DNA of 36,528 nt, from NCBI GenBank assembly GCA_900128395.1, contig LT649336.1, positions 1 to 36,528 of the forward strand, in the 5' to 3' direction. Both the position numbers and the translations under genes were made by a program. The stretch comes from Stramenopiles sp. TOSAG23-2 (Eukaryota). The notes under the pieces were generated by a model. It saw only the letters and a list, made by a program, of their open reading frames with translations, was not told where the DNA came from and did no database searches. Shown one piece after another: positions 1 to 36,528 of the stretch (position 1 is its first letter; each line of letters opens with the position of its first letter).

Positions 1-279
1 TTTGAAATTCATTTTTTGATAAGATTTGGGTCCGCTTGATTTCGTTCCGCCTCTTCCGCATTTAGAATCTACCTAAGGCTGGCAAGCCTGGTTAGTATTA
101 CATACTTATATATCAATCATCAAATGAATTATTGTAGATAATAATTAATAATTATTATATATTTTACATTAATAATACATCCAGACGACTGCCAATATAT
201 TTAATATATATAGAGAGGTATATCCATATAATAGTTCTATCAAAAAGTAATAGTCAAAGGCAAAAAAAAAAGAAGCAAA

Positions 280-1197
280 ATGCAAGTACAAAACCGAACG
301 CAAAAAGTCATGGGATTAACTTTACCAGAAGATGCAGACGAAGGAGATGTGAAAAAAATTAAAATCACTATAGCAAGCGTTATTGGTTTAATCTTTTTCT
401 TTGTCGTATGGCACATTTTCGTTTTTAGCGGAGATCCGTCTAATTTTATTGGGTTAGCCATCAACCTACTGACAATATTTGGCATCGCCGGGTGCGCATA
501 TATGGGAATTTATACTAAAAATCCAACTATGTTGAAATTTCTATCTTGTTGCACCTTTTATATGGTATTCAATGTAATCTTAGGGATATTATTAGTTGTT
601 ATGCTTGTTAATGGGACAAAAAATCGTTGCGACGACTGCATAAAGAGGAACATTACAAAGTGTATCTCTGATCCGAGAAATGATAATAGTCCTGAGTTAG
701 ATACGTCTAAAAATTGCCAAAACTATCTGCTCGAGAACTCACCACGTGCAATAATATATATAGCATTTTGTGTTTTACATATGTTTTTATTTGCTGTTGT
801 GGGCGTAACTGGATGTCAATTAAGTGATATGAGATACTTTGTAAAACAAAAAAATTTTGCACAAGGAGGAGGACAAGTATATTCAACAGGTGCTGTTGTA
901 GTTCAATCTCAACCAATGGTGGTAACTGGACAGCCAATGATTGTTCAATCACAACCGGAAATAATATCATCTGGTCAACCACAGATCGTAACATCTGGTC
1001 AACCACAGATCGTAACATCTGGTCAGCCAGTATTTATGACATCAGGTCAACCCCGTAAGTTTTCTAAATATATTCTAAATTTTCTATTATACTAAAATAT
1101 GGATCATGTCTTTTCTAACAATAATTTATATTCACATCTATATATATATATTCTTACAGAAATCAGACAACCGGTTGTTAATCGACAACAACTTTAG
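280..1197 (+). CDS. Four-TM membrane protein with a Cys-containing loop (tetraspanin-like topology) and a Q/P/V repeat tail; exons 280-1054 and 1160-1197, ~270 aa
   Basis: Four hydrophobic segments and four Cys between TM3 and TM4 (no CCG motif). Splicing GTAAGT(1055)..CAG(1159) continues the SGQPQI repeat as ...SGQP-QIRQPVVNRQQL*. Confidence 0.75.
968..1025 (+). repeat. 24-bp coding tandem repeat (SGQPQIVT), ~2.4 copies
   Basis: catctggtcaaccacagatcgtaa at 968-991 and 992-1015, partial copy to 1025; degenerate copies flank it. Confidence 0.9.
1055..1159 (+). other. Spliceosomal GT-AG intron (105 nt)
   Basis: GTAAGT donor, CTAAC branch-like site at 1115-1119, TTACAG acceptor, AT-rich interior; splicing preserves the repeat frame. 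Confidence 0.75.
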
Positions 1198-14713: not shown

Positions 14714-17700
14714 TTAGCACCATAAATTTAAACCATGCCATGCTCTGTAATGCACTCTATCATCAGTTGCTAATATCATCAATTGTTTGATTTGTTCTTT
14801 TACCTTTTTATTTATATCGTCTTCATTATTATTATTATTATTCATATTATCATTCTCATTTTTCTTATTATTGATTTTATACTCTTTTTCCAATCCTTTG
14901 ACAAAATTTTTTAAGTAATTTATGTTTGCTGGTACACATCGTTTGTTGGAATTAAGAGTATCATACAAAATAGAAAATGGTGACTCCATTGCAATTTTTC
15001 TCTCTACAAATTGTAAACAGGTTTTGTTTTGTGTATTAAGCTTCAGACTTTGAAAGCTTTGCACTAAATTGCTGGAGGATTTTTGACGCCATTCTAATAT
15101 TGGATCAGCAAGATACGACCTCATGGAACTTAATAGTAACGATTTCTCACTAATCATTGCTTTCATAACCGTGCACATATGTGCTTCCAACGCAGCATTA
15201 CGGTTGGGATGGGGTGCCATTAAATGAACCATCTGTTTTGAATGTCTAAATGGTATTAACTCAGGAACAGGCAAAAGAAATGTTGCAGAACCAAAGGTAT
15301 GTCCAAAATCAATTGGTATAAGTTCGCAATCACTTTTGCGTAATAAACAATTGCCTAAATGGCGATCGCCAATTCCCAATAAATATGTTGCGATATTTAT
15401 AACCGCTCGTGATGATATAATTTTGCTACGTAGAGTTACAAATGTTTCAGCTGTAGATGCTATCGAACGTAAATAATTTCTAAAGCGCAAATTGTTAAAT
15501 GTTGCCGTCGTCTCTTTATATTTACTACGAATTTTTTCTTCTCCTCTGGTACTTGCAGCATCTTTGTATATTTTATCATAAGCATCAGAACCAGATTTAT
15601 TGCCATGTTCTTTTATGAATTGGGCAATAGTGTCTCTATTTACATATGCTTCTTTATTTTTTTTTTCTGGGCCGTATGTATCAGATAGCGTGCATGTACC
15701 ATCAACCCATTCGATTAGCCCCGCTGTCATCGTAATAGGTACTACCGCGAATGTATTTACTTTCATATTATGCTTTCTACAATCTGGTTTTGAACGGAAA
15801 ATGCTATTCATTGCTTCAAAGACTTGTTGCACGCGCTGATCATTTCTTAAATCCTCGTCGGACTTGGCTAAAAAACGATATTCAACTGAATCGCTTCCAT
15901 AAAATGTTAAACGCTTTGGTGCGCGCATCGATGATAAAATTAACATTGATTCTTCAACATACGCAATTGCAGCATGCCCATTTGGTAATGGCATGCTTTT
16001 CGTATTACGGTATTGTCCTGGAATCTCAATATTAGAATGTAACAATGTCAATAAATATGGACTTTCTATTCTCATTTTTTGCCCTTTATATATGTCTGCA
16101 TACTTGTTTGTCATGATTGCCTTTTTATTTCTAATAATTTTCATTTTCTTGTACTTCGGATCAATTGGTGCTTTTCTTTGAGCAATTTCAATGATAGCAT
16201 CCGCAAATTGAGTCAAATTTGGTACTTTTTGAAATATTCGTTTTAACGGTACAACAAATATCGTATCGGAATCAGATAGATTCATACTTTCTTTTGCAAT
16301 GCGAAAATCGTAATAAACAGCCTGTGGGTATTTCTCTGCAACATTAATAATTATATCTTTCAATGCCATTCGCATACTGTGATTTTCTTTAAAAAATGCC
16401 ATCATTAATGGAATAAAACTTAAAAATTTCCAAGGTTCAACTTGATATTTTTTTGCTTGAGACGAGAAATACGAGCAAATTTTCATATTGCTATCTGGAT
16501 GTGCCATTAAGCTTAAAACTTTTGAAAAACGTTCTGATGCAACAATACTGCCCAATTTCATTGCATGCAATAAATTGTCTATGAATTTAGTGCTCAAATC
16601 ATAAAACTGTGCTTTGTGAAATTTCACCTCATCGGCATTCTCCTTGGTGCTGTTGTTGCTGCTGCTGCTCCTACCATTACTGTTATTACTCTTCTTTTCT
16701 AAATTATCCAACAACTTTTCATCAAATAATGCTAATGCACAGTATCCTGATGGACCGCCAGCCTGTGTATATGCAGTCCTTGCATTGTTACAAATATCAT
16801 GAATTATCATGTCATTGTATCCTTTAGACGTATCTTCATTTTGTTTTAAAAAATCTTCTAGATGTATATTCATTTTCTTTGAAAATATATTACCTTGCAA
16901 AATATAAAATTTCGCTTTTGTTGTTTCACTTTCTTGATCCAACAGTTTACTTATTTTCAAATCTTCTAAAATTGAGTTTGCTTTATTCAGCGCAGGTATA
17001 CTTTTATCATCTACTAAGTAGAAATATCGAGCGGTTATATAACCATCCTTAAAAGTTTTTTTAAGTTGGCTGTCCTTTCTAATTTTGCTTGCTGCGACGA
17101 TACTATTTCTTGCTTTCATCTTATTATTTTGAAGGAATGATCCTTCTGCAAGACGATATAGACAGCTCATTCTCGCCTCGTCCTTTCTATTGCTTTCTGG
17201 TATTGTATGAATACAAGCCATACGAGTCTGGTGTAAATCATCCCACGTTTTGACTGAATCGTATCTATGGGAAGGCCAACTTTTCTCCCAACTAGTTACT
17301 AGACGGTCAAAATCATCATAACCAGCATTATCATTTTCCTGTAAGGTTACAAAATCTTGGCATGAAATGAAAAGTGGAAGCATTGACAGAGCATCATGTC
17401 GTGCTGAAAACGAATATACATCTAAGCTTGAATAACGGTTTAGCAACTTATCTATTTCTTCCCAAACAATGCCATGCGCACCTTTCCATTCTCTTCGATT
17501 AACTTTACTGAAAAAGTCTTTTAAAAATAACTTCGTGGATTCATCATCAGATGAGGTATCTGAATTCGCTTGATTTAAAGCATCAGTTTCATATTGCTTT
17601 AATCCATCCATAATTTCCTCTTCTTTTAAAGTCTCGTAAATGCTATTTAAACATTCCCATCCATCATTTCCATCATTGGCTAATCTGTCGTTTGCAATTA

Positions 17701-20700
17701 TGTTTTCCTCTATAACAACTGCGCCAGCTGCTAAGTTTAGGCTACTTATTGCTTCGTTTTTTATAATTTCCAACTGCTCTATGCTAATATCATCCTTCGT
17801 AGGCCCAGATAATAATGTGAAACAGTTTCGAATGAAAGAGAAATCCCTTTTGTGGATATTATCGGTATTACTTCGTGCTAGAATATTTAGTATAGAATGA
17901 TAACCTTCATCCTTCAAGGCATACAAAAATATGCTATTCGCAGCCATATTAGCAAGCTTCTTATCAAATATGAATAAATTCAATAAAGGATCTATTAAAT
18001 CTTTGTATTTCAATTTAGTATCTGGTAGCTCGCCAATCCTGTAACTTCGATATAGTACCTTTCGTTTACTTTCCTTCTCGTACTTTCTCCGTTTGCTTCT
18101 TGAATACGGCATAGCGAAAGAGCCATTATTAGGATCCATTTTTCTTTTACGGTAAAGCTGTATTCCAAAGTTTTGTGATGCTAATTGTGTAGAAGCTCCG
18201 CTACTATTGGCTCCACCATCTTCGGACTGGGTTAGACTAAATAACATGTCACCGTCATTTTGTGTTGCCATTACCATATCGCCATAATTGCTGTTGTTGT
18301 TACTAGTGGCAGTTGACAAAGACTGAGAAGCCCAATTATCATCTATATCCATATTTGTCGATTGAGAAGTGGACGAAGGTATTATCATTGAGGATACCAT
18401 TGATGAAAATGCAGGTTCCATATACAAGGATTGCGTCATGTCAAATCCGTTTCCACTTCCCGCATTTATTTTTAAGTCTGTGAAATCACACTTGTGTATC
18501 TCTTTATTGCATCTTGGTAAGAATGAATTTTGACGATAATCAGCACCATTCTTTACCAAACAGAGCATTAAATAACTGGACAACTGAGAATGAAAGTCTT
18601 CCATATCTTCTCTGATAATATTTGGATTTAACAATGACAAAGCACGGTTGACACTACTTTTTTGTGGTAGAATTTCATTCCAGTATGATAGTAAACAATC
18701 TTTTACAACTCTATAACGATTTTTCAATCCTAATAGGAGAATGTCCCTCAAATATAGCGTACCTTTATCAAAGTATTGTAATTTAGCATCATCATCTGTT
18801 AGCATTGTTGCGGTGGTTGTACTCGTTGTAGTTGTAGTTACCGGTGTTACAACATTTTCCCTATTTTTTGCAACCAATCGTCGATCCATCGATATGCATA
18901 GCTCATAAAACAGTATACAAATATCAGGATTTTCATTAGTAATATATGCCATTGTAAAATTTGTATTTGTAATCACTGTAGTAGATGATTCTTTGTTAAT
19001 TTTAATTGAAACAAATGTTGATTTTGGCCATTCCTCTATCGGCTTTTTCTCAATCCACAATGTCATTATCTCTAATAAAAACCTTTTAGTTTTTTGATTA
19101 TCTTGTGAAGCTAGCATATCAAATGCTGTTTCCAAGTGCTCAAAACATAATGTTACAAGATCTACCGATACCTCCTCCCATGTCAGCATTTTGTGCGTAA
19201 TTTCTAACGCCAACGCCACGCTGTCGCTATCCAATAGCGACAAACGACCCAAAAAATTACTGAAGAAATCGCGGCTATTGCATAGGCGTGGGCCCAAATG
19301 CAGCGCCACTTGAAGCAGCTTTTTTGTTTCTGCCTTATTGTGAGGATTAAATTTGGTTTGTAACTTCATCCTTACTACATCATAGAATGCCTTGCCTAAA
19401 ATTTCATCTTCCTTCGATTCTTGTGCAATTGTACATATAAATCTAGAAGCATTAAACCGTATATCAATATATTTAGCTTCAAAGACCTTATTTCTAATAC
19501 CATGAACTTTGTCATATAAGAACGTGTCCTTATCCATGATGCTACTAATTTTCTCCCAATTCCAAGGTATAAATTCGTTAATAATACAATATATAGCAAG
19601 CGCCAGAGCTTGTAATTGTGACGCCCATCGCACATTGCTTTTTCTGTTTGATTCTTCCATCCACTTAAAAAGCCAATGGGAGTTATTACAAATTGCATTA
19701 CAGCCTACCATGTAAATATCAAAAATTAGCAACGTGTCGACAGATAGTATTTGAGAATTCATTTCTTGAAACCAATGCTTAAACAGTATTTTAAAATGAT
19801 CGAGTGCTTTTGACTTAATGACACCTTTCGTATATGCTAATACCTTGATCCAGTTATTGAAAAACGTCTTCAACTTGGACAACATCGACAAATCCGCTCT
19901 ACCACTATTTGCTACGTTCTTCATCATTACATCGCCGTGATCATCATGCCAGTCAGCTAATATTGATGTCATCCTTTTAAAAAAGTCTTGAAAGCGATCA
20001 TCAAACAGTCGTGTGTCGGCACTATAATCAACTAAAGTTGATATGCAAAATGCTTCCCATTCTGTTGAAAATGGTTTAAAGTACTCAGGCATTTCACTGA
20101 TTAAATGTAAAATAAAAATTTTCAAGCACAATGGTGTTTCGGTTGCATTCGTCCCAATATCTAGAAGGATTTTCATAAATTCTGGTTGAGGTTTGTCAGC
20201 AACCCTTATCCACATTTGTTGTTCTTCGTCAAATGTAGCCCAAGCGTTATATTCATAATTAGGTTCTGGATTTTTATTTTGATTCCAAAGATACTCAAAT
20301 ATACTACAAGTAGTAGTAACACAATCTGCATTAGCATTCCTCCAGTCTTGTGATGGGTACGGAACATCTACTATTAAATTTTTCCAATGCATCAAACTAT
20401 TGTCCGCTTTTTTGCTTTTGCTATTAATTAAATTTACTTGAGTTTGCATTTTCCTTTGTGTTTTAATAGCACAATGGCACAAACACAAGAAAGCAGCAAC
20501 TTTGCAAGAATGGTCAACACTGGGATCTTGGTGCAATATAATTTTCTTCGATTGAAGAATGATATGCATCGTTAACGCAGTGTCTTTTCCATCAGCAAAC
20601 CTTTTGCCGAGATGCGACTTACCTGTACCGTAACCTTGAACTAACTCGACGATTTGATTCTTAATTTCCTTATCATCTAATCGCTGGTATAAAATTTGTA

Positions 20701-23700
20701 GTAAAGAAAATGAATATTTAATGAAACTGGAATTTACGTTTCCAACTTTTGATGCATCTGACAGAGGAAGAAGCCAATCAAAAAGAGGCTGATTACCCGG
20801 TAAGCTCTTATAACCGGTGCGAAATATGTTTGAAATAATATCTTTTTGACAATGCAGCAAATATGGAATGCACACTTTTTTTAGAACCATCTCCTTTAAA
20901 TCCTCGCCATACAACTTCAAATTATTATTAAATAGAATTGAAGTCGAGAGCTCCATGATACTGGAGCGTAATCGTACAACCATATCAGGAGCAGGATCCT
21001 TCGCATATCTTGTAATAATCTTTTTAAGCATTTGATCAATTTTTTCACGCAACAAATGGTCTGGGTGTAGAATTTTCCTACACAAAATTGAAAAATATTC
21101 ATGGCAAAAAATACCACCAACATTTAAAACTAGAAGTCCGACTTCAACAGCTTTGCAATTTTCACGCTCGTCGCTCGATCCAGCATCTACGACTGAACTT
21201 GGGCCTGGGAAGTGGTATCTGAAAATTCTTTTTTTTAATATTTCACATGTTATTGCTGAACATTTTTTTGCGTCTCTTCGTTCTATCGTACTAGACGATT
21301 TTAGAAGTGTACCAGAAAGTCTGAAAGCCTCCATTTTCAATTCAAATGGTGGTTGATCACCAACATCCATTAACAAAAAGTGTAATAAATCCAAAAGGAA
21401 TGAATCTGTACGTTCATTGCTGACATACTTTTCACTTTCAATTATTGGTATTAAAATTTGTAAAAATGAAATCAAAGTTTGCAATATTGGATTAACTCCA
21501 TTCATAACGAAATTACTTTGAGAGTTACTGTTTCCATTACTTTGAAGTTGCGATCCCCAAAGACGATTTTGCTCTAAGAAATAATCATTAAATGCTTCGA
21601 TTAGTTGATCAAACGATAAAATTTCCGTCGTATTATACTTTTTATTGTATAAAATAAAACGAATAATAATTTTTCTTAACAAATGAAGAATGCGAGATGA
21701 TTGAAAAGCAAAACGGAACATATCCTTGGAGATGCTTATCCAAACGTTTGGCTGCATAAAAAACGATGTTATGGCTCCAATTATTGAGTTATCGTGACTT
21801 TTATTCTTGTCATTGATATTTTGCTGAAGATTTTCTGACATAGAAAGTATGTAACTCAAAAAGCTTGATTTTTCAATCATATACAATACATCCTTTGGCT
21901 CTAAGTGTATTTTATTAAAATTGAACAGAAAAAAAACAACGCATTCGTAAAAGTCCATCAGTAATGGGGATAAATTTCTTTCTGCAACAAGTTTTAATTC
22001 ATTTATGATGAGATTGCAAAACTTGTTAATGCAAGTATTGTAACGATCGTCGTTCGAAAAAATTAATTTTAAGACGCCATGTTTATTAGACAAGGTCAAG
22101 CCATTCAAAATTAACTTCTTCGATTTCAAAGTATATTTTACGTTTCCTTCCATATCCAGACCATCTCGAGTAACTCTCAAAGTCTCATCAATTTCATTAT
22201 AAATTAAATCTAGTTTCTTCACAACATTAATAGAATCAAAATCACTGCTACATAATGTCGATTTATGTTCCTAATATAAATTATAATTTCAGGTTAGTCA
22301 TTAAACTTAATTTAGTAGTGGAAATATATATGTTTATACATAAGGTCAAGAATTTCATGAATATTGGCTCAGAAACATATGTTATAGACGAATCCCATCT
22401 TTGTTTTACTTTCGATATCAAGGACGAACCTTTATCTCGGTCATGGATCATGTAAGATCCGAACAAAGATCAAATAAAACTCTGGTAATTAGTGACAACG
22501 TTTTCACCTTTTTTTTTTTTAGCATAAAAAATATATACCAAAACATAAGAAAAAAGACAAAAAAACTGAATTTCCACCTTTTGCATAATTAAATATCATA
22601 CAATGATGTATTGCATCCGGAAGGATACAAAATAAAAACCAAGTTAGGGTTAACAGTACCAACTTTGCCTTGCAAAGCCATACTACAACGGTAAAACGTC
22701 GGTCTAAAAACATATTGTTGTATCATCACAGCCAAACAGAAATCATATTGTCTTCAAAGATTTTAAAGTGTTTCAGATTTACATACCCCGCTAGCAATTG
22801 TAAACAACGTTTTACATGCTTCCTCTTGTAACGTTTCGTGAGGAACTTGCGCTTCATTTGAAATTGTGGTTGGATAAAAAAGTGCTGCAATTAATAATGG
22901 CACCACACCCTTTAACAAATCTCCGGCGTGTTTTGGATTTATGGTATTATTAGAGAAAGAAGCTAGAGCTTCCTTGTCTTGAAATAGATTATCAATGAAT
23001 TTGAACAATTCGCAAATCAATGTACCAGGCAATATTGTAGTGTTTGCTGTTCTACCAGCAATATTTATCAATTCATAAATATTGTCAATAATATGTGAGA
23101 CTGATGCTCTTGTTGAAACGGAGTCTCCATTAATATGTCGCTTTTTATTTATACTGGAACTTCCACCAATATCATGGTTGTATGATGCTAGGCTGCTCAT
23201 TTTAATCATGTGCTTTTCAATAGCCCAATTATATGCAAATAAAGATCCTTCTAGACCTCTATAATACGATTTCAAATCTCCTACCTGTAAACGATAACGC
23301 AAGCTGTTTTGATTTTCAAACAAATATACAAAGTCCGGCTTCTTTGTTAAACTATATCCAGCTTCAGATTCATATTTTGCTCTGGCTATAGAACTGAACA
23401 ATTTTGAACAAATAACGCGCATTTCTATAGATTGACTAGAGATCTGACATAAAATATATTCCATTAATTGATCCAAATTGTTCATAACTTCCCCTGTATA
23501 ATTGTCCCCACCACTTAGATGTTTGCATATAATCCTCGTAAAGTGTTCAATTATATCGCCCAATGATTTACAATTATCAAATTTATTATCTGTGAAGCTA
23601 TTCTCATTGCTTTTTAAAGCATTTAAAGTGTGGTATATGATATCTAACGAATACTTGCGTATTAGCTCCGGTTCTTCACGAAAATCTCTGTAAAATAAAT

Positions 23701-26700
23701 TGATTGTATTTGCAGCACCAATTTGTTTGTGCGTATTTGGATTTTTCAACATATTGAACAAACGCCGCATTAATGAATCAATCTGCACAGGGTTCGACTC
23801 ATTACTACCGCTGCTGGAACTGCTACTGCTTCCTCTACTTTTACGTGAACGAGAATTGTTTTGTTTTATAGCCCATTTCAAAAATTCCGCTAAAGCTCGT
23901 GTGCTTACATCCTTTAGTGCAGCATCCTTATCGTTGCTTGCTCCAATCACGACACAGTTCAACCACGTAACCGTCTCTGGTGCAGTTTGGTTAGTTTTAC
24001 GTGATTTAGCTCTGGAAAACCAATGGCAAAGTTGCTTTACAAGTGGTTCAAATAAATTTCTTGTAAAATCGTATGAATCTGTTGCTAAACGTAAAATGCA
24101 CGGGAAAACTTTTTCGTATATTTGACACAATTCTGGTTGATTCACCTGTGGTAACATATACAAGATAATAGTATGCAATGCTTCGCATGCAGTTGTTTTA
24201 ATATCATAGTCACCGCTCAGCTCTGCTAATTCAATTATTCGAGGAATAATTTCAGTAAGATCCAATTTATATTTAGCATTTATTTGGTCAAATATCAATT
24301 CAATTTTCAACACATCTTTTGAACTGGTCCATCGTAATCCTTTTGCAATGTCTTTCTCCGATGACCCAACTATGTCATGTACACGTCCACCAATTCTTCC
24401 TAGAAAATTCAGGATATATGTTCGTAAGCTGTCCCTTCCTTCTGCATTACTTTTACTTGCTTTCTTCGACTCTTGGTGCGCTTCTTCTTCATCTTCTAAT
24501 AAATATTCGTTTAATTTTGGTAAAATAGATGGTAAACATTCATCGAGCTTATCATCAGACAATGTTTGACGCCATTTTTCTAATGCTTTTACAGCAACCC
24601 ATGCCACTGGTCGATAAGAGCGGCCAATAGTTAATGCACTTTGTAAAATGGGGGTTTGAACTTTCAAAAAATATTCCATCATTTGATGCGGAGCGGACAA
24701 TATCATTTTTGCTGCAGAAACAAACAGTTCGTCGCGATATTGTGTAGAACGCCTTTGTATTGTTTCAACGTATGATAAAACAATTTCAAAGCACTTTTCA
24801 CGATCGTCTTTAATCACACTATTCTTATCATTCACATTGCCGCTGTTACTATTATTGCTAAAGAAGTTTCTCATTTGGTTCTTATCATTAAAAAAATTTC
24901 CTTCACTGCATAATTCAAAAAAAATTTGAATGATTTTATAAAAACCACTTACTTCATAATGATCTAGAGATAATGGTATTAGTTTTGTCAGGAATGGGAT
25001 GGCCCATTTCAAACTACATTGCACGTATCTGTTGTACAAGGTATTTGACAGTTTACGTTTTAAAATTTGATTAATTGACGTATAAAATTCAATTAAATTC
25101 AAAAAATGATTATAATCAATTGGATTTTGTGGTTCTTTTAAATGTTTTCGCAACATAAATTGTGTCACTTCATTTTCATTATTAGTAGATTGAGTCAGTG
25201 CCTCATTTTCATCATCCTTGTCCATATCATCTAATTCAGGATCCTTCAGTGCCAAATTGAAACTTTGCAACTTGTTTAATATAGACTTAATTAATGCATT
25301 TATGATACTTTGTGCCACATATAATTCATCTCTGCATGTCCATTTATGAGATGATGACTGTGCAATAATATTTCCTTCACCATTATTGCTGTTATTGCTA
25401 GTACTACGTTCGGATAAAAATATAAATGGTTCACTTAATGCATAAATTAAAATTTCACTCATAAATTTCGAGTATACATCAGATAATTTGAAATTTACGA
25501 AGGAATCCTCAACCTTATTACTGTTCATATCATAAGTGATTCTTTGTAATGCTTCAACTTTGTACATTGACATATTCATACACTCTACAACAATACTGTC
25601 TAAAGTTGCCAGGAAAGTTTCATTATTTTTCGTCGTAGCATCCATTAAATGAACCATTTCTTTAGCAAAATTTATACGATCACTATCTTTGTATCTTTTT
25701 TCCCATGTCTGGTAATAGTTATGGACGACATGGCGTAAAACTTTGCTCAACGGATCGTACAATGCAGCATCAAGACTCTCTTCCGGCATGTAGTATATTA
25801 TGGATGAACATGCAGATATCATTGCTTGTTCATCACTTCCTTTTGCATAAATTTCACTATACCCATTTGAGTAATAATTTGCCGCACTATTGCGCGATGT
25901 TAAAATATTGGACATGTAATTTTTGAGCAATTTATTAATAATTATGTCCTTCAGCTCTTGCGTTGAATCATTAAATTTTGCTTTCATTGCGCCAGCAAAA
26001 TCTCCAATGATATAAATACCAAGTTCTTGCGTTTTGCGACTTTTATCTTGTAAAAGATTCATTGTAGACTTCATAACCAGTTGGAATATAATATCATATC
26101 TTTTCATATCTTCACTATTGGCAACAATAGTAGTGTTTCTCTCTGAAGTAGTGGTAGTTGTATCCATTTCCATCATCATCATCATCATCATGCTATTATT
26201 GTTACTACTACTACTACTACTGCTATTATTGTTGTTGTTATTGTCATTATTTATCTTTTCGTTGTGAAAATTATATATTTCATTATTAAATACACGTATG
26301 ACAGCACGTAAACCAAATATTACAAATTCACGTAGTGTTTTTTTATCTTTACTTAAAAATATAGTTAATAGGAGACGATATATTTTTTCACCATTTTTAA
26401 TAATCCTTTTTGAAAATAAATGAGAATGTTTTGAAATAAATTCAATACCAGCTTTTGGTACGCTATAACGTTTTAAATCTTGACGAACATAAATGGTTTT
26501 TTCGTATATGCAAGAAAATAAATCATTCATTTCATTTTTTTTGCTGAAAATATCAGAAATACATGTACCATCTTTAAATTTATCGATTATTTCAATAGCA
26601 GCACTTAATCCATTAATAGCTCCTGAAATGATATTAGCTTTCCCATCGCCACCTTCTTTAGCATATTCACCAGTTAATCCGTTCAATAACGTACGATATA

Positions 26701-27400
26701 TTCCATCCCTATTGTTTTTCAATTCGAGTGGATAAACAGAATATAAACGACCCAGTAATTCCAATGCGGAACCTTTCAATACCCCATACGCTTTTGCACC
26801 TTTTCCAATGAGATTTAGTGTCATATCATAAAGCGGTCGTGACTGTCTACCGACATTATTAGTGAAAAAACCCACCTTGAACTGTGACGCCGTCACCAGC
26901 GGTGTTCCGTTATCATCCAATTCACTTGGTGAAGCTTTTAATATTTCAAACAACAGGTTAAATACAGGGGTGCGTACAGTTGCTGATTTATTTTCACGCA
27001 TTAAAACTTGATAAGATACCTCGATAATTTTATTGAGAAAAGTTTTATATTGTGCAAGATTATTGGTATCAGCTTTGAACAATGACGTAAGTTGAACGAC
27101 AACTTCTTTTCTAGCTTCATTCATTTCCTTATCTCCATTTCTTCGATTAATGGAAGCTTTATTCAAAAAGGTAAGGATATCCGGTGGATCATCAGAACAG
27201 AGTAAGAGTGAGATAGCACGTGTATGCAAAGACCTATTACTTTGAATTGTTTCTGTTTTACTAATGTTGAAAGCACTCTCCACTAATTGTTTTGGGCTAG
27301 CTTGCGATGTTTTGATTCCTTTCTCCGCAGAATCTGCAAGTTTTAATAAAACATCTTGAAGTCTTGATATCTCCAAGGAGGAGGTATTCATCGACGTCAT
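14714..27400 (-). CDS. PRKDC: DNA-dependent protein kinase catalytic subunit; exons 27400-22787 and 22270-14714, ~4056 aa
   Basis: PIKK motifs EIPGQY, FLAKSDEDLRNDQR, GIGDRHLGN and [23 protein letters not shown]; DNA-PK-like LYRSYRIGELPD and FEPLVKQLCHWF; FATC-like end. A phase-0 GT-AG intron joins the two track ORFs in frame. Confidence 0.93.
22271..22786 (-). other. Spliceosomal intron of PRKDC (516 nt, phase 0)
   Basis: GGG|GTATGT donor at 22786, branch site TGACTAAC at 22300-22293, TATTAG|GAA acceptor at 22271; joins ...IASG to EHKSTL... in frame. Confidence 0.88.
22364..22735 (-). ncRNA. Intronic box C/D structured RNA (~372 nt); candidate telomerase RNA
   Basis: TTGGC-T-GTGATGA (C box 22729-22723)...CTGA (D box 22372-22369)-GCCAA terminal K-turn; long-range helices; TAACCCTAAC at 22652-22643 directly 3' of a long hairpin. 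Confidence 0.7.
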
Positions 27401-34737: not shown

Positions 34738-34835
34738 TATGAAATCATACAAAATATCATATTTTAGATGGAAATTCACTTTTTCAACTATGAAATCATA
34801 CAAAATATCATATTTTAGATGGAAATTCACTTTTT
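34738..34835. repeat. Tandem duplication, period 51, 47 identical bases
   Basis: tatgaaatcatacaaaatatcatattttagatggaaattcacttttt at 34738-34784 and 34789-34835. Confidence 0.9.
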
Positions 34836-36528
34836 TACATAAATTATAAATATCGTTTTTGGAATATTGAAACCTATCAACAATTTAGTATAATATTTTT
34901 GTACTAAATAGTGTTAGACAAAGCCGACACTACAAGTGAAAACCACCTATCAAGTAGTGTTACAGCTATAGGGTTACGCGTTTTTTTCAACTTTTAACGG
35001 ATATTCAAATATGAAGTAGATACAAGAATATTGATATATTCAGTAAAATTATTACCAAACATATAAAAATTGATCGTGGATACTTATTTTTCTAAAGTTA
35101 TGTATATATATATGTAAAAAACTACCTTTTCTCATTTTCAAATTTTACATTTTTAGTCCATACTGTGTCCATACTAATTTGGAAAAAAATCACCATTTTG
35201 AAAAAAATTCGTTACCTTGTCAGTTTCATTTAAAACATAATTAGATCAAAATATGTATGCACTTCTTTCCTTTAGGGATGTGTTAAGAGATGTGTCTTAT
35301 TTTGAATCAATTCGTAGAAGATTTAGATAGAAAAAATCGACACATTGTATTTCGGTGATATTTCTGATAATTTTTCAATATTTTGGTGATTTCTTGGTCT
35401 ATAACCCTAAACTAACCCGATCTTGAAAATCACATATCGGTGTAAAGCTCGACTTATACGTGATGTATGGACAGGAGAACGGTCGGGGATTGTTTAGGTG
35501 ATCAGTATATAACTTTTAGGTATTGGTTTCAGCTTTGTATATAATGGGAAAGTATAGAAATGGCATTCGTGTGAGTGTATGTTGGTGTTGAGAAATAGAG
35601 TGAGAGGTCCCGTCATGTACGGGTATGACCCCACAATGCTAAGTAGTGCTAGCATCTCTAACCCTAACGTAAATGATCAAAATGCACGATATTTTTAGTA
35701 AACATGGTTTTACTGTTAAACTCCCCAGACCACGACCTACAGACATTATATACGTAATAAATAACGGATATGCAACGTTTCAAAGTCTAATTTTAATATC
35801 TTCAATGAAAGTTTTCAACCTTTCATGATTTTCACCATTTACATGGAAAAGTGCTCTAATACTAACTCCATGCTAACGTACGATTTAAAAAAAAAATTCA
35901 GCACTTTTCTTTAAAAACATAATTATACACGTAAACTCCCAGAGAAAAGTTAAATATATCACCTACGATATAGAATCTACGACATTTTATCAAAATTTTT
36001 TATGTTTTGTGTTAAAAAGGTAGATTTCTAGCTCCATTTAGAATTGTTGTGATTCAAAATCGATTTGGATTTCTAGGCCTTTTTCAGGCACATGGGAATC
36101 CATTACAAAATAGGGTATAGTCAACACAATATATCTCGAGTCAATGAAAATATTAATACAAAAGTAGTACGAGATCTCATTTTTACATATAAAGAGCCAA
36201 ACTTAAGAGTAAGTTGATGACAACTGAGTGCCAGGAACATACTTTACTAATGACGTTTCAATTGCATGTCAAAGTACCCTTACTATGGAATAGGCTTGTA
36301 AAACCTTAATAAAAGTGTCCAAAAATATGCATTTTTTAGTGAAAATTCACTTTGGGTCTAGCGTTTCATGTAAATGTAATATTTATTTTGGTTGGAGTTT
36401 AGAGATACAAGTTATATATATAAAGAAAGGATGTCGAAGTTTATATGACTTCAAAATGTTGGAAATGATGTTTGGAGACGAAATGCAAATTCGATATATC
36501 TGATGAAATTTCTCAATTTTCGTACCCA

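Follow-up and report, generated by a model that had tools for sequence, protein, structure and literature searches.

A probable box C/D-type RNA in the only intron of a marine stramenopile DNA-PKcs gene as a candidate telomerase RNA

Why should a long protein-coding gene hold a single intron, and what might that intron carry? The window analysed here, a stretch of 36,528 nt from Stramenopiles sp. TOSAG23-2 (contig LT649336.1), contains on its minus strand a gene of 12,687 nt (27400..14714) made up of two uninterrupted ORFs. Exon 1 (22787..27400, minus strand) is an open frame of 1538 codons matching the Pfam families DNA-PKcs_N (3.6e-44) and DNAPKcs_CC1-2 (2.8e-36), and exon 2 (14714..22270, minus strand) is open for 2518 codons plus the stop, with matches to DNAPKcs_CC5 (4.5e-10) and PI3_PI4_kinase (2.1e-43); judged by these likenesses, the gene is a DNA-PKcs homologue. 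The sole intron (22271..22786, minus strand) is 516 nt long and lies in phase 0, the frame running on into exon 2. Its donor GTATGT (22786-22781), branch box TGACTAAC (22300-22293) and acceptor TAG (22273-22271), all read on the minus strand, together with the frame, point to an intron with standard signals that is presumably removed by splicing. The original prediction that this is the only intron of a 12.7-kb gene, and five times longer than the other intron in view, agrees with what was found: the two ORFs have one interruption, and the claim on length holds because the two other introns of the window, recognised by motif and reading only, measure 105 nt (1055-1159, plus strand) and 70 nt (31438-31369, minus strand). 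A tRNA scan of the window found no tRNA. In the four RNA runs considered below, the exons and the remaining part of the intron were without a contig, a missing cover that is uninformative, and no exon-exon joint appeared among the contigs.

Inside the intron, in sense orientation, box C/D motifs delimit a candidate RNA of 372 nt (22364..22735, minus strand; position p of the RNA is 22736 minus the window coordinate). The 5' half of its terminal stem, UUGGC (22731..22735), pairs with the 3' half, GCCAA (22364..22368), the partners running from 22735-22731 against 22368-22364, and within this stem stand box C, GUGAUGA (22723..22729), and box D, CUGA (22369..22372), the latter being the sole CTGA in the RNA. 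The bulged bases U, G and U occupy 22730-22728, GUGAUGA starts at 22729, and UGAUGA extends over 22728-22723. Every pair and the bulge that had been described for a textbook C/D kink-turn could be located on the minus strand, namely five Watson-Crick pairs, the 3-nt UGU bulge, the G.A/A.G pairs, U.U, G-C and A-U. The proposed placement is likewise correct in all its distances, with the RNA beginning 51 nt after the donor and its last base (22364) lying about 70 nt before the branch A and 93 nt before the end of the acceptor. When both strands of the whole window were scanned for RTGATGA and CTGA 60-500 nt apart with five flanking Watson-Crick pairs, one match was obtained; the mean in 300 second-order Markov shuffles was 0.09 per window, or about 6e-4 per 516-nt sense intron.

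Sequences from seawater RNA libraries bear on whether this stretch exists as an RNA. The 46 words sampled from the intron were present at the same share (0.74) in 18 seawater RNA runs from 13 studies and three year-groups. In each of the four runs examined, from four studies, the stretch between the boxes was found as a single contig of 353-356 nt within 22368..22723 on the minus strand (22368-22723 in X11, 22368-22722 in X2, 22368-22720 in X5, and 22369-22721 in X8), identical to the window with 0 differing letters. That the box-to-box stretch is a separate piece in RNA libraries is supported by these contigs. On the 3' side they end 1 nt after box D in 4/4 runs, whereas their 5' ends (22720-22723) coincide with the final base of box C or fall 1-3 nt inside it. 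Such coincident ends are a weak hint, and contigs cannot prove the end, strand or level of an RNA. Two DNA contigs, L001 and L002, continue across both end points. What we take to be Illumina adapter is carried by loose contig ends of X2 (22368 and 22722) and of X5 (22368); these adapter-like ends imply that sequenced fragments of X2 ended at both points, and a P5-type adapter on the low-coordinate side in this run fits a minus-strand RNA, provided that the library was of the usual stranded kind. The idea of a separate intron RNA is therefore borne out for the box-to-box stretch, seen as one contig in 4/4 runs, but not for box C, whose last base is the furthest point that the contigs reach, leaving this box outside the RNA stretch seen. 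The 5' end proposed at 22735 was not confirmed, as the contigs stop at 22720-22723.

These end points could also be read in another way: the C/D resemblance of the flanks would be accidental, no C/D particle would form, and an RNA beginning near 22723 would arise either from its own transcription or from some other processing of the intron. Contigs ending at 22720-22723 in 4/4 runs, the adapter abutting 22722 in X2, and a TTTAAAA motif 38-44 nt upstream of 22723 would all suit such an origin. However, the other end falls 1 nt past box D in the same four runs, a C/D pair with five flanking pairs would occur by chance in the intron with a probability of only about 6e-4, and, as described below, two relatives have box-C-compatible codons at the matching place, one of them at the same spacing. 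Internal T runs further oppose Pol III, and RNA-seq commonly loses the first ~10 nt; RNase-H-type second-strand libraries in particular usually lose ~10 nt at RNA 5' ends. A fragment with fortuitous flanks is accordingly considered quite improbable, and the stretch is very probably an intron-processed RNA of the C/D type.

The predicted fold of the 372-nt RNA supports a structured body. In the sense orientation the minimum free energy (MFE) is -97.1 kcal/mol (z -4.35, with 0/100 shuffles equally stable), whereas the antisense strand reaches -69.9 (z -2.38), and the GC content is 0.325 in the RNA versus 0.255 and 0.204 in the intron flanks. The RNA contains runs of T5, T5, T7, T6 and T6, and synthesis by Pol III is unlikely on account of these internal runs, as had been argued beforehand. 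The bases before box D (RNA 351-361) are paired with RNA 17-27, with an unpaired probability near 0, whether the MFE or the centroid structure is taken, and sequence reading found no second CTGA or TGATGA in the RNA and no C'/D' pair. On the modelled structure, then, the interval enclosed by the two boxes does not qualify as a methylation guide, in line with the earlier view. Further elements predicted from the fold include a hairpin at RNA 51-82 (22654..22685, minus strand), with high pairing probability in MFE and centroid, and a three-way junction at RNA 261-345 (22391..22475, minus strand), found in single-sequence MFE and centroid structures only, with a 4-bp stem and a 5-nt loop; this junction might resemble the vertebrate P6.1 stem-loop and, in a telomerase RNA, might stand for a second TERT-binding element of the CR4-5 or stem-loop IV type. 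Between them lies a U-rich and A-rich region at RNA 170-236 (22500..22566, minus strand; U7, U6, U4, U6, A12 and A4), which in a structural model might form a pseudoknot or triple helix, and a simple search for crossing helices in the RNA gave one H-type pseudoknot candidate, from a single sequence without covariation. The lengths of the U and A runs differ among population variants (A12, A13 or A10, and a U tract 4 nt shorter), P0008 and L002 being the variants that differ. This variability would run against a precise triple helix, and homopolymer assembly errors could also explain it.

Known families, U13 and U14 included, offered no name for the RNA. At the gathering score Rfam gave 0 matches in the window, and at E<=10 only 2 low-complexity chance matches were obtained for 22000-23000, so that the check proposed for U3, U8 and scaRNA matched no known family at either threshold. 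Identity with U3 was rejected, since Rfam gave no match and box C is not preceded by a 5' domain. None of the telomerase RNA families of Rfam matched either; these families are lineage-specific. Intron-encoded box C/D snoRNAs of yeasts, plants and animals lie in sense orientation, end beside their boxes and sit tens of bases before the branch site. The candidate resembles them as a sense intronic RNA with a terminal stem and boxes and in its similar distance from the branch site; if the RNA contig ends are a guide, its ends may also lie next to the boxes. In contrast to the usual members of that class, it is about 3-5 times longer, has no C'/D' boxes, has paired bases before box D and belongs to no Rfam family, and its host encodes a DNA-repair kinase rather than a translation-related protein. 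The original prediction that the length lies far above that of a typical C/D guide is correct for the 372 nt delimited by the motifs.

An RNA of this kind could be an intron-encoded box C/D RNA unrelated to telomerase, such as a processing or chaperone snoRNA (compare U8, U14 and U22), a Cajal-body RNA or an orphan, in which the hairpin and adjoining bases bind a protein or a target. It would share the C/D, RNA-library and conservation evidence with the explanation preferred here, and presence in 18 modest-sized runs suits an abundant snoRNA-like RNA no less than it suits a telomerase RNA; polymorphic lengths of the U/A tracts would also be in keeping with it. Against it stand a length of 372 nt far beyond that of usual C/D RNAs, the want of any Rfam snoRNA or scaRNA family even at E<=10, and the missing D' box and free guide before box D. 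Moreover, a snoRNA of ribosome biogenesis would not normally be expected in a DNA-PKcs gene, which likewise speaks against this assignment.

A role in cis was weighed as well, in which a kink-turn or kink-loop RNA delays excision of its host intron and so regulates the DNA-PKcs mRNA. Mammalian klRNAs bound by the 15.5K protein are proposed to act this way on their host intron (bioRxiv 10.64898/2026.08.03.742641), and the terminal C/D motifs, orphan status and intronic position of the candidate match that class as the preprint outlines it, its position, with the branch site some 70 nt downstream, being a further point in favour. However, the klRNAs portrayed there are compact and form a K-loop, whereas the RNA described here is long (372 nt) and has a full closing stem (K-turn) as well as a conserved hairpin beside a telomere complement. 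A terminal motif acting on host splicing would need neither the structured body (z -4.35) nor a distantly conserved hairpin, and the sections of the preprint drawn on here report the class for human and mouse only. We regard this role as very unlikely.

A candidate telomerase RNA template, UAACCCUAAC, lies at RNA 84-93 (22643..22652, minus strand), comprises 1.67 repeats complementary to TTAGGG and begins 2 nt after the hairpin at RNA 51-82. TTAGGG is inferred to be the ancestral telomere repeat of stramenopiles in the account given in PMC3622300. Over the two strands of the window 0.075 copies of the 10-mer would be expected, and the chance of finding it inside the RNA is about 1e-3 by composition. 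This figure rises to a few percent for one motif in the RNA when the local frequency of TAACCCTAA is used: 3 copies of the latter were seen in the window versus 0.46 expected, the two further ones at 35402 and 35659 (plus strand). Such recurrence means that the telomere-like motif may serve another role in this genome, and the over-representation favours a C/D RNA unrelated to telomerase, for which the 10-mer would be a chance occurrence or have another use. The region around the two other copies (35300-35990) showed no likeness to the RNA beyond the motif, and 150-nt windows over these copies gave no fold signal (z -1.5 to +1.7), values of z -2 to -3.5 being reached only in the last windows, from 35780 on, past the TAACCCTAA copies. 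Within the RNA, the modelled hairpin followed by UAACCCUAAC has the layout of a template boundary and then a template, a boundary function being what this order suggests. The best-conserved hairpin of the RNA, with one compensated pair, directly precedes a perfect 10-nt telomere complement, and this argues against a C/D RNA without a telomerase function, which we regard as possible but doubtful. A telomerase RNA role, as far as it can be read from sequence, is plausible, the case for it being evenly balanced.

Conservation was followed in relatives at the level of the intron and of the RNA. Three related ORF sets (P0004, P0006 and P0005), with 37-45% protein identity, are broken at the same phase-0 position, their homology being lost exactly at the end of exon 1 and followed by V (GTN); P0006 is Stramenopile MAST-4 in EukProt naming. 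The presence of the intron across relatives, for which a comparison had been suggested, was in this way found at an unchanged position in all three. The RNA itself was compared through back-translated read-through peptides, in which third codon positions are ambiguous and a stop may not be UAA. For the final 30 codons of the read-through in the MAST-4 type, the best fit to the intron is ungapped and lies at RNA -3..86, where 60/90 positions are compatible, versus 53 for the next offset (p ~0.001, 2000 shuffles). Agreement is concentrated at the 3' side of this stretch, RNA 58-86 having 3 forced differences in 29 positions. For the hairpin at RNA 51-82, 11/12 pairs remain possible, and pair 54:79 is changed from U-A to C-G in a compensated manner. 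By contrast, RNA -3 to 57 shows 27 forced differences in 60 aligned positions, which indicates little conservation there beyond box C, and the hairpin at RNA 35-50 is not kept, since 2/5 of its pairs cannot form. At the place of box C the codons allow UGAUGC in the MAST-4 type and AUGAUGA in the P0005 type, and both G of the 5' half of the terminal stem are kept in the MAST-4-type read-through. The spacing from box C to the template is the same 76 nt in the MAST-4 type, and its read-through stop codon falls exactly on the first three bases of UAACCCUAAC. At the level of these translated sequences, a distant relative is shown to have conserved the place of the intron, a motif compatible with box C, the hairpin and the spacing. 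The suggestion that the intron was kept for hosting the RNA fits these observations, since its position is conserved and a portion of the RNA can be recognised in the intron of the MAST-4 type.

A metagenome search with the protein of the exon-1 end returned two same-species contigs only, 99.3-99.7% identical, of which L001 has 0 differences in the RNA and L002 carries the A13 run, and a pseudo-ORF search with the 5' half of the RNA found one variant (P0008). The entry P0023, obtained in the pseudo-ORF search with the 3' half on the opposite strand, was discarded as a spurious repeat protein. A profile search with alignment A3 gave P0003 only, low-complexity words having probably crowded the candidate list, and the EukProt gene model P0032, of the P0005 cluster, offered no readable bridge across the junction. 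No relative was found when the DNA-PKcs alignment was compared with viral contigs. Matches of the 16-mer GTTAACCCTAACTTGG, at 13 loci of viral contigs and 64 loci of prokaryote genomes, were set aside as chance, the longest further likeness to the RNA at such loci being 46 nt at 76%.

Taken together, the explanation that we favour, with moderate confidence in the whole of it, is that the DNA-PKcs intron hosts a C/D-processed stable RNA acting as telomerase RNA. The host would be an AT-rich marine protist, probably a stramenopile related to MAST-4, whose intron carries a stable RNA of 355-372 nt. Boxes C and D, joined by the 5-bp stem, would form the kink-turn, to which Snu13-type and Nop56/58-type proteins may bind on the pre-mRNA or the excised intron. 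Exonucleases would then degrade the intron from either end as far as the C/D particle, as for intron-encoded box C/D snoRNAs, and processing of the RNA may depend on splicing. The hairpin at RNA 51-82 may act as the template-boundary element and UAACCCUAAC as the template, with the C/D particle serving, by analogy with trypanosomes, as the stability and biogenesis module of the telomerase RNA.

The telomerase RNA of Trypanosoma brucei has a terminal box C/D bound by Nop58 and Snu13 (PMC5175330, citing Gupta et al. 2013), and the candidate shares with it, as characterised in that article, the terminal boxes C and D, the closing helix and a core with a TTAGGG-type template, putative in the present RNA. 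In contrast, the T. brucei RNA is described there as about 1 kb long, transcribed from its own Pol II unit and trans-spliced, whereas the present RNA measures at most 372 nt, belongs to another supergroup and has a spliceosomal intron of a protein-coding gene as its location. The telomerase RNA of Ustilago maydis offers a parallel in origin, being cut from a protein-coding Pol II transcript and bearing a 5' monophosphate, but it comes from the 3' UTR, is 1,291 nt long and has no C/D motif mentioned in the parts of the article drawn on here (PMC9564094), whereas the candidate would derive from an intron and owe its limits to a C/D particle. In size the candidate is comparable to the Pol III telomerase RNAs of plants, ciliates and Blastocystis, which have a few hundred nucleotides, Blastocystis belonging to the same supergroup (according to PMC8287931). 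Unlike these RNAs, which have a type-3 promoter and end at a T run, it contains internal T5-T7 runs, and no promoter of its own was recognised. Among the stramenopiles covered by the relevant sections of PMC8287931, the promoter element used in the search for telomerase RNAs of the Pol III type was found only in Blastocystis and Proteromonas. The open-access literature searched contained no C/D-type or intron-encoded telomerase RNA outside kinetoplastids.

Should the telomerase reading fail, the locus would still provide an unusually long, conserved, non-guide C/D RNA, which would still explain the single intron of a 12.7-kb gene, and the read-through tails of ORF calls are usable as a proxy for the intron sequence of relatives. 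Telomerase RNAs diverge so strongly that they are still missing for most protist lineages, among them, according to the sections of PMC8287931 drawn on here, nearly all stramenopiles. That a box C/D particle from the one intron of DNA-PKcs, conserved in position, supplies the telomerase RNA of MAST-type marine stramenopiles is a proposition on which our judgement is equally divided. If true, an intron-encoded telomerase RNA would be seen for the first time and a C/D-type telomerase for the second, after that of kinetoplastids, whether of independent or ancient origin, with a C/D particle serving as telomerase scaffold outside trypanosomes. The intronic route would join Pol III genes, snRNA-like and H/ACA-like Pol II genes, spliceosomal cleavage and the mRNA 3' UTR as a source of these RNAs, and would count against a uniform Pol III origin in the supergroup of plants, ciliates and stramenopiles. 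The supply of telomerase RNA would be tied to transcription of a gene for DNA-end protection, and a compact candidate from an environmental genome would open the study of telomerase in abundant, uncultured ocean grazers.

The window has a GC content of about 31% and is eukaryotic DNA. Its minus strand carries two long open frames in succession, 27400..22787 and then 22270..14714, with Pfam domains in the order DNA-PKcs_N, DNAPKcs_CC1-2, DNAPKcs_CC5, and PI3_PI4_kinase, and on this evidence they jointly read as a DNA-PKcs homologue of 12,687 nt. Sequence reading places its sole interruption, a phase-0 intron of 516 nt, at 22271..22786 (minus strand), starting with GTATGT at 22786, carrying TGACTAAC at 22300-22293, and ending with TAG at 22271. 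Without the candidate RNA described here, this intron would measure 144 nt. The other two introns recognisable in the window by signals and reading, both positioned by signals only, measure 105 nt (1055-1159, plus strand, near the 3' end of ORF 280-1095) and 70 nt (31438-31369, minus strand, in a pyridoxal-decarboxylase-like gene, after a 10-nt first coding exon, ATGACAAATG).

The candidate RNA (22364..22735, minus strand, RNA position 1 being 22735) is delimited by a C/D motif that the original prediction had described as a textbook kink-turn, and sequence reading bore out every detail of that description: the terminal stem UUGGC x GCCAA (22735-22731 x 22368-22364), the bulge U, G, U, and the boxes UGAUGA (box C, 22728-22723) and CUGA (box D, 22372-22369), which form tandem G.A pairs followed by U.U, G-C, and A-U. 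The stated placement is likewise correct, with 51 nt between donor and RNA, about 70 nt between RNA and branch A, and 93 nt between RNA and acceptor, and so are the T5-T7 runs inside the RNA and the pairing, in predicted folds, of bases preceding box D with bases following box C. A scan of the whole window on both strands for RTGATGA...CTGA, 60-500 nt apart and with five flanking Watson-Crick pairs, gave the intronic pair as its single match, against 0.09 expected per window in 300 second-order Markov shuffles. Since sequence reading found a single CUGA and no repeat of box C, and box D is preceded by paired bases, the RNA is not a typical methylation guide; it matched no Rfam family, including U3, U8, U13, U14, the scaRNAs, and the telomerase families. 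It is possible that it acts on host splicing as an intron-derived orphan RNA with terminal C/D motifs, since RNAs of this kind with such an effect have been reported in mammals in a recent preprint, which, however, describes them as compact.

The intron was detected in 18 public RNA runs, all of them seawater metatranscriptomes, from 13 studies in three year-groups and possibly as few as three campaigns, and all 18 share the identical fraction (0.74) of its 46 sampled words. Comparison of the contigs of four runs (four studies) with window 21900-23200 gave exactly one contig in each, of 353-356 nt and with 0 differences, spanning 22368 or 22369 to 22720-22723. The contig of one run (X2) extends at both ends into sequence which we take to be Illumina adapter, so 22368 and 22722 would be ends of sequenced fragments; if this is a standard stranded library, the orientation of the adapters agrees with an RNA from the minus strand. 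L001 and L002, two conspecific DNA contigs, continue through both end points. Contigs prove neither end, strand, nor level, and their coincident ends are a weak hint; for this reason the evidence is taken as good for the box-to-box stretch being a separate piece in RNA libraries, and as fair for a 3' end 1 nt or slightly more past box D. It is weakest on the 5' side: the contigs reach no further than the final base of box C, which leaves 12-15 nt to the proposed 5' end, and box C is a putative part of the mature RNA. RNase-H-type libraries commonly lose about ten 5'-terminal bases, and the chemistry of the present libraries may differ. The predicted fold of the sense strand (MFE -97.1 kcal/mol, z -4.35) is much more stable than those of shuffles, the antisense strand being less stable (MFE -69.9, z -2.38).

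A metagenome scan returned the same species only, and the viral and prokaryote collections searched held no relatives. At the exon-1 end, protein relatives at 37-45% identity are P0005 and the pair P0004 (JGI) and P0006, whose C-terminal read-through tails are identical and whose proteins are otherwise near-identical; P0006 is labelled Stramenopile MAST-4 in EukProt. These ORFs match exon 1 approximately in length, homology is lost exactly at the exon-1 end, and the next residue is V, a reading of GTN, which places the intron at the same position in the relatives; the phase-0 position is thus kept across lineages with less than half of the flanking protein sequence identical. The automatic ORF calls in all three relatives run through the splice donor, and because the ORFs read on past it, their C-terminal tails are translated intron sequence. 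These tails are the sole comparative data for the candidate RNA, and all conservation between relatives is inferred from peptides. Exon 1 also carries a low-complexity insert with runs of N, S, and M (codons ~390-425, window ~26130-26230, minus strand), which has no counterpart in the MAST-4-type and P0005-type relatives and differs in length among population variants. Among relatives of the host protein, the closest with a name is MAST-4, which offers no more than a lead to the lineage of the organism.

The MAST-4-type tail (48 codons plus stop) was back-translated to degenerate bases and slid along the intron, a peptide-based comparison that does not cover third codon positions or the relative's sequence past the stop. 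The best ungapped fit of its last 30 codons was at intron 48-137 (RNA -3 to 86), with 60 of 90 positions compatible and 53 at the second-best offset; in 2000 intron shuffles the best score averaged 52.5 (sd 1.5), and 60 was reached at a rate of 0.001. The stop codon coincides with the UAA that begins UAACCCUAAC, the codons G-N-D-A lie over box C, where UGAUGC is possible, and the spacing of 76 nt between box C and UAA is equal in both sequences. Forced differences amount to 3 of 29 positions over RNA 58-86. In the hairpin at RNA 51-82, a candidate template-boundary element, 11 of 12 pairs are still possible, and pair 54:79 reads C-G in place of U-A, both bases having changed. The MAST-4-type sequence does not preserve the small hairpin at RNA 35-50, and divergence over RNA -3 to 57, apart from box C, is about that of random sequence. 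The short P0005-type tail ends S-H-D-E-stop and allows AUGAUGA at intron 47-53, compared with GUGAUGA at intron 58-64 in the window species. Population variants of the latter (41 cluster members, ~99% identity) added little; in one pseudo-ORF (P0008) the whole 5' half is peptide-identical, and the U and A runs differ in length.

The 10-mer UAACCCUAAC (22652-22643, minus strand, RNA 84-93), by sequence reading 1.67 repeats of the TTAGGG complement, lies two bases past the conserved hairpin, where folding predicts some of the bases to be unpaired; given the base composition, a 10-mer of this kind would occur within the candidate RNA with a probability of about 1e-3. On its 3' side follow U7, U6, U6, and A12 runs with one possible crossing helix, and then a three-way junction predicted by single-sequence folding; the runs with their helix could represent the pseudoknot, and the junction the second TERT-binding element, if the RNA belongs to telomerase. 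TTAGGG has been deduced as the ancestral stramenopile telomere repeat (PMC3622300), and trypanosome telomerase RNA reportedly has terminal C and D boxes and binds Nop58 and Snu13 (PMC5175330). Ustilago telomerase RNA is described as deriving from an mRNA 3' UTR (PMC9564094). For Blastocystis a Pol III-type candidate has been reported, and the promoter element that such genes need was noted in no analysed stramenopile other than Blastocystis and the related Proteromonas (PMC8287931). The open-access literature yielded no intron-encoded C/D-type telomerase RNA. A telomerase RNA is the best single functional reading of the candidate, and we consider it about equally likely to be right or wrong.

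Against the telomerase reading, however, population variants differ in the lengths of the U and A tracts, and TAACCCTAA has two extra copies at 35402 and 35659 (plus strand), within a 2.3-kb non-coding stretch; the resulting three copies in the window exceed the 0.46 expected, so the motif may serve another role. The telomere-like motifs there, TCTATAACCCTAAACTAACCC (35398-35420) and TCTCTAACCCTAACGTAA (35655-35672), both on the plus strand by sequence reading, are 257 nt apart, and the 2.3 kb around them, at the window's right end, contains no long ORF. Windows of 150 nt over both gave no Rfam match and no fold signal, and their region has no similarity to the intronic RNA outside the motif; the extra copies could be telomere-repeat relics or sites for protein binding, or could belong to another non-coding gene. 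What may be a short first exon, ATGGCATTCG, is followed by GTGAGT/GTATGT and, ~290 nt on, TACTAAC (35560-35905, plus strand); if this exon exists, an intronic location would follow for the second telomere-like motif as well, and no supporting ORF was found downstream. A perfect 51-nt tandem duplication also occurs at 34738-34835 (plus strand), each copy with an 18-20-nt stretch ~90% identical to RNA 157-176 (blastn E 0.002-0.008), a likeness that may be due to chance in AT-rich DNA.

The C/D kink-turn described in the original prediction is confirmed in the sequence. The intron very probably harbours a discrete RNA that is conserved, bounded by the C/D motif, and not a guide, and such a hosted RNA would be a good reason for the intron's retention.
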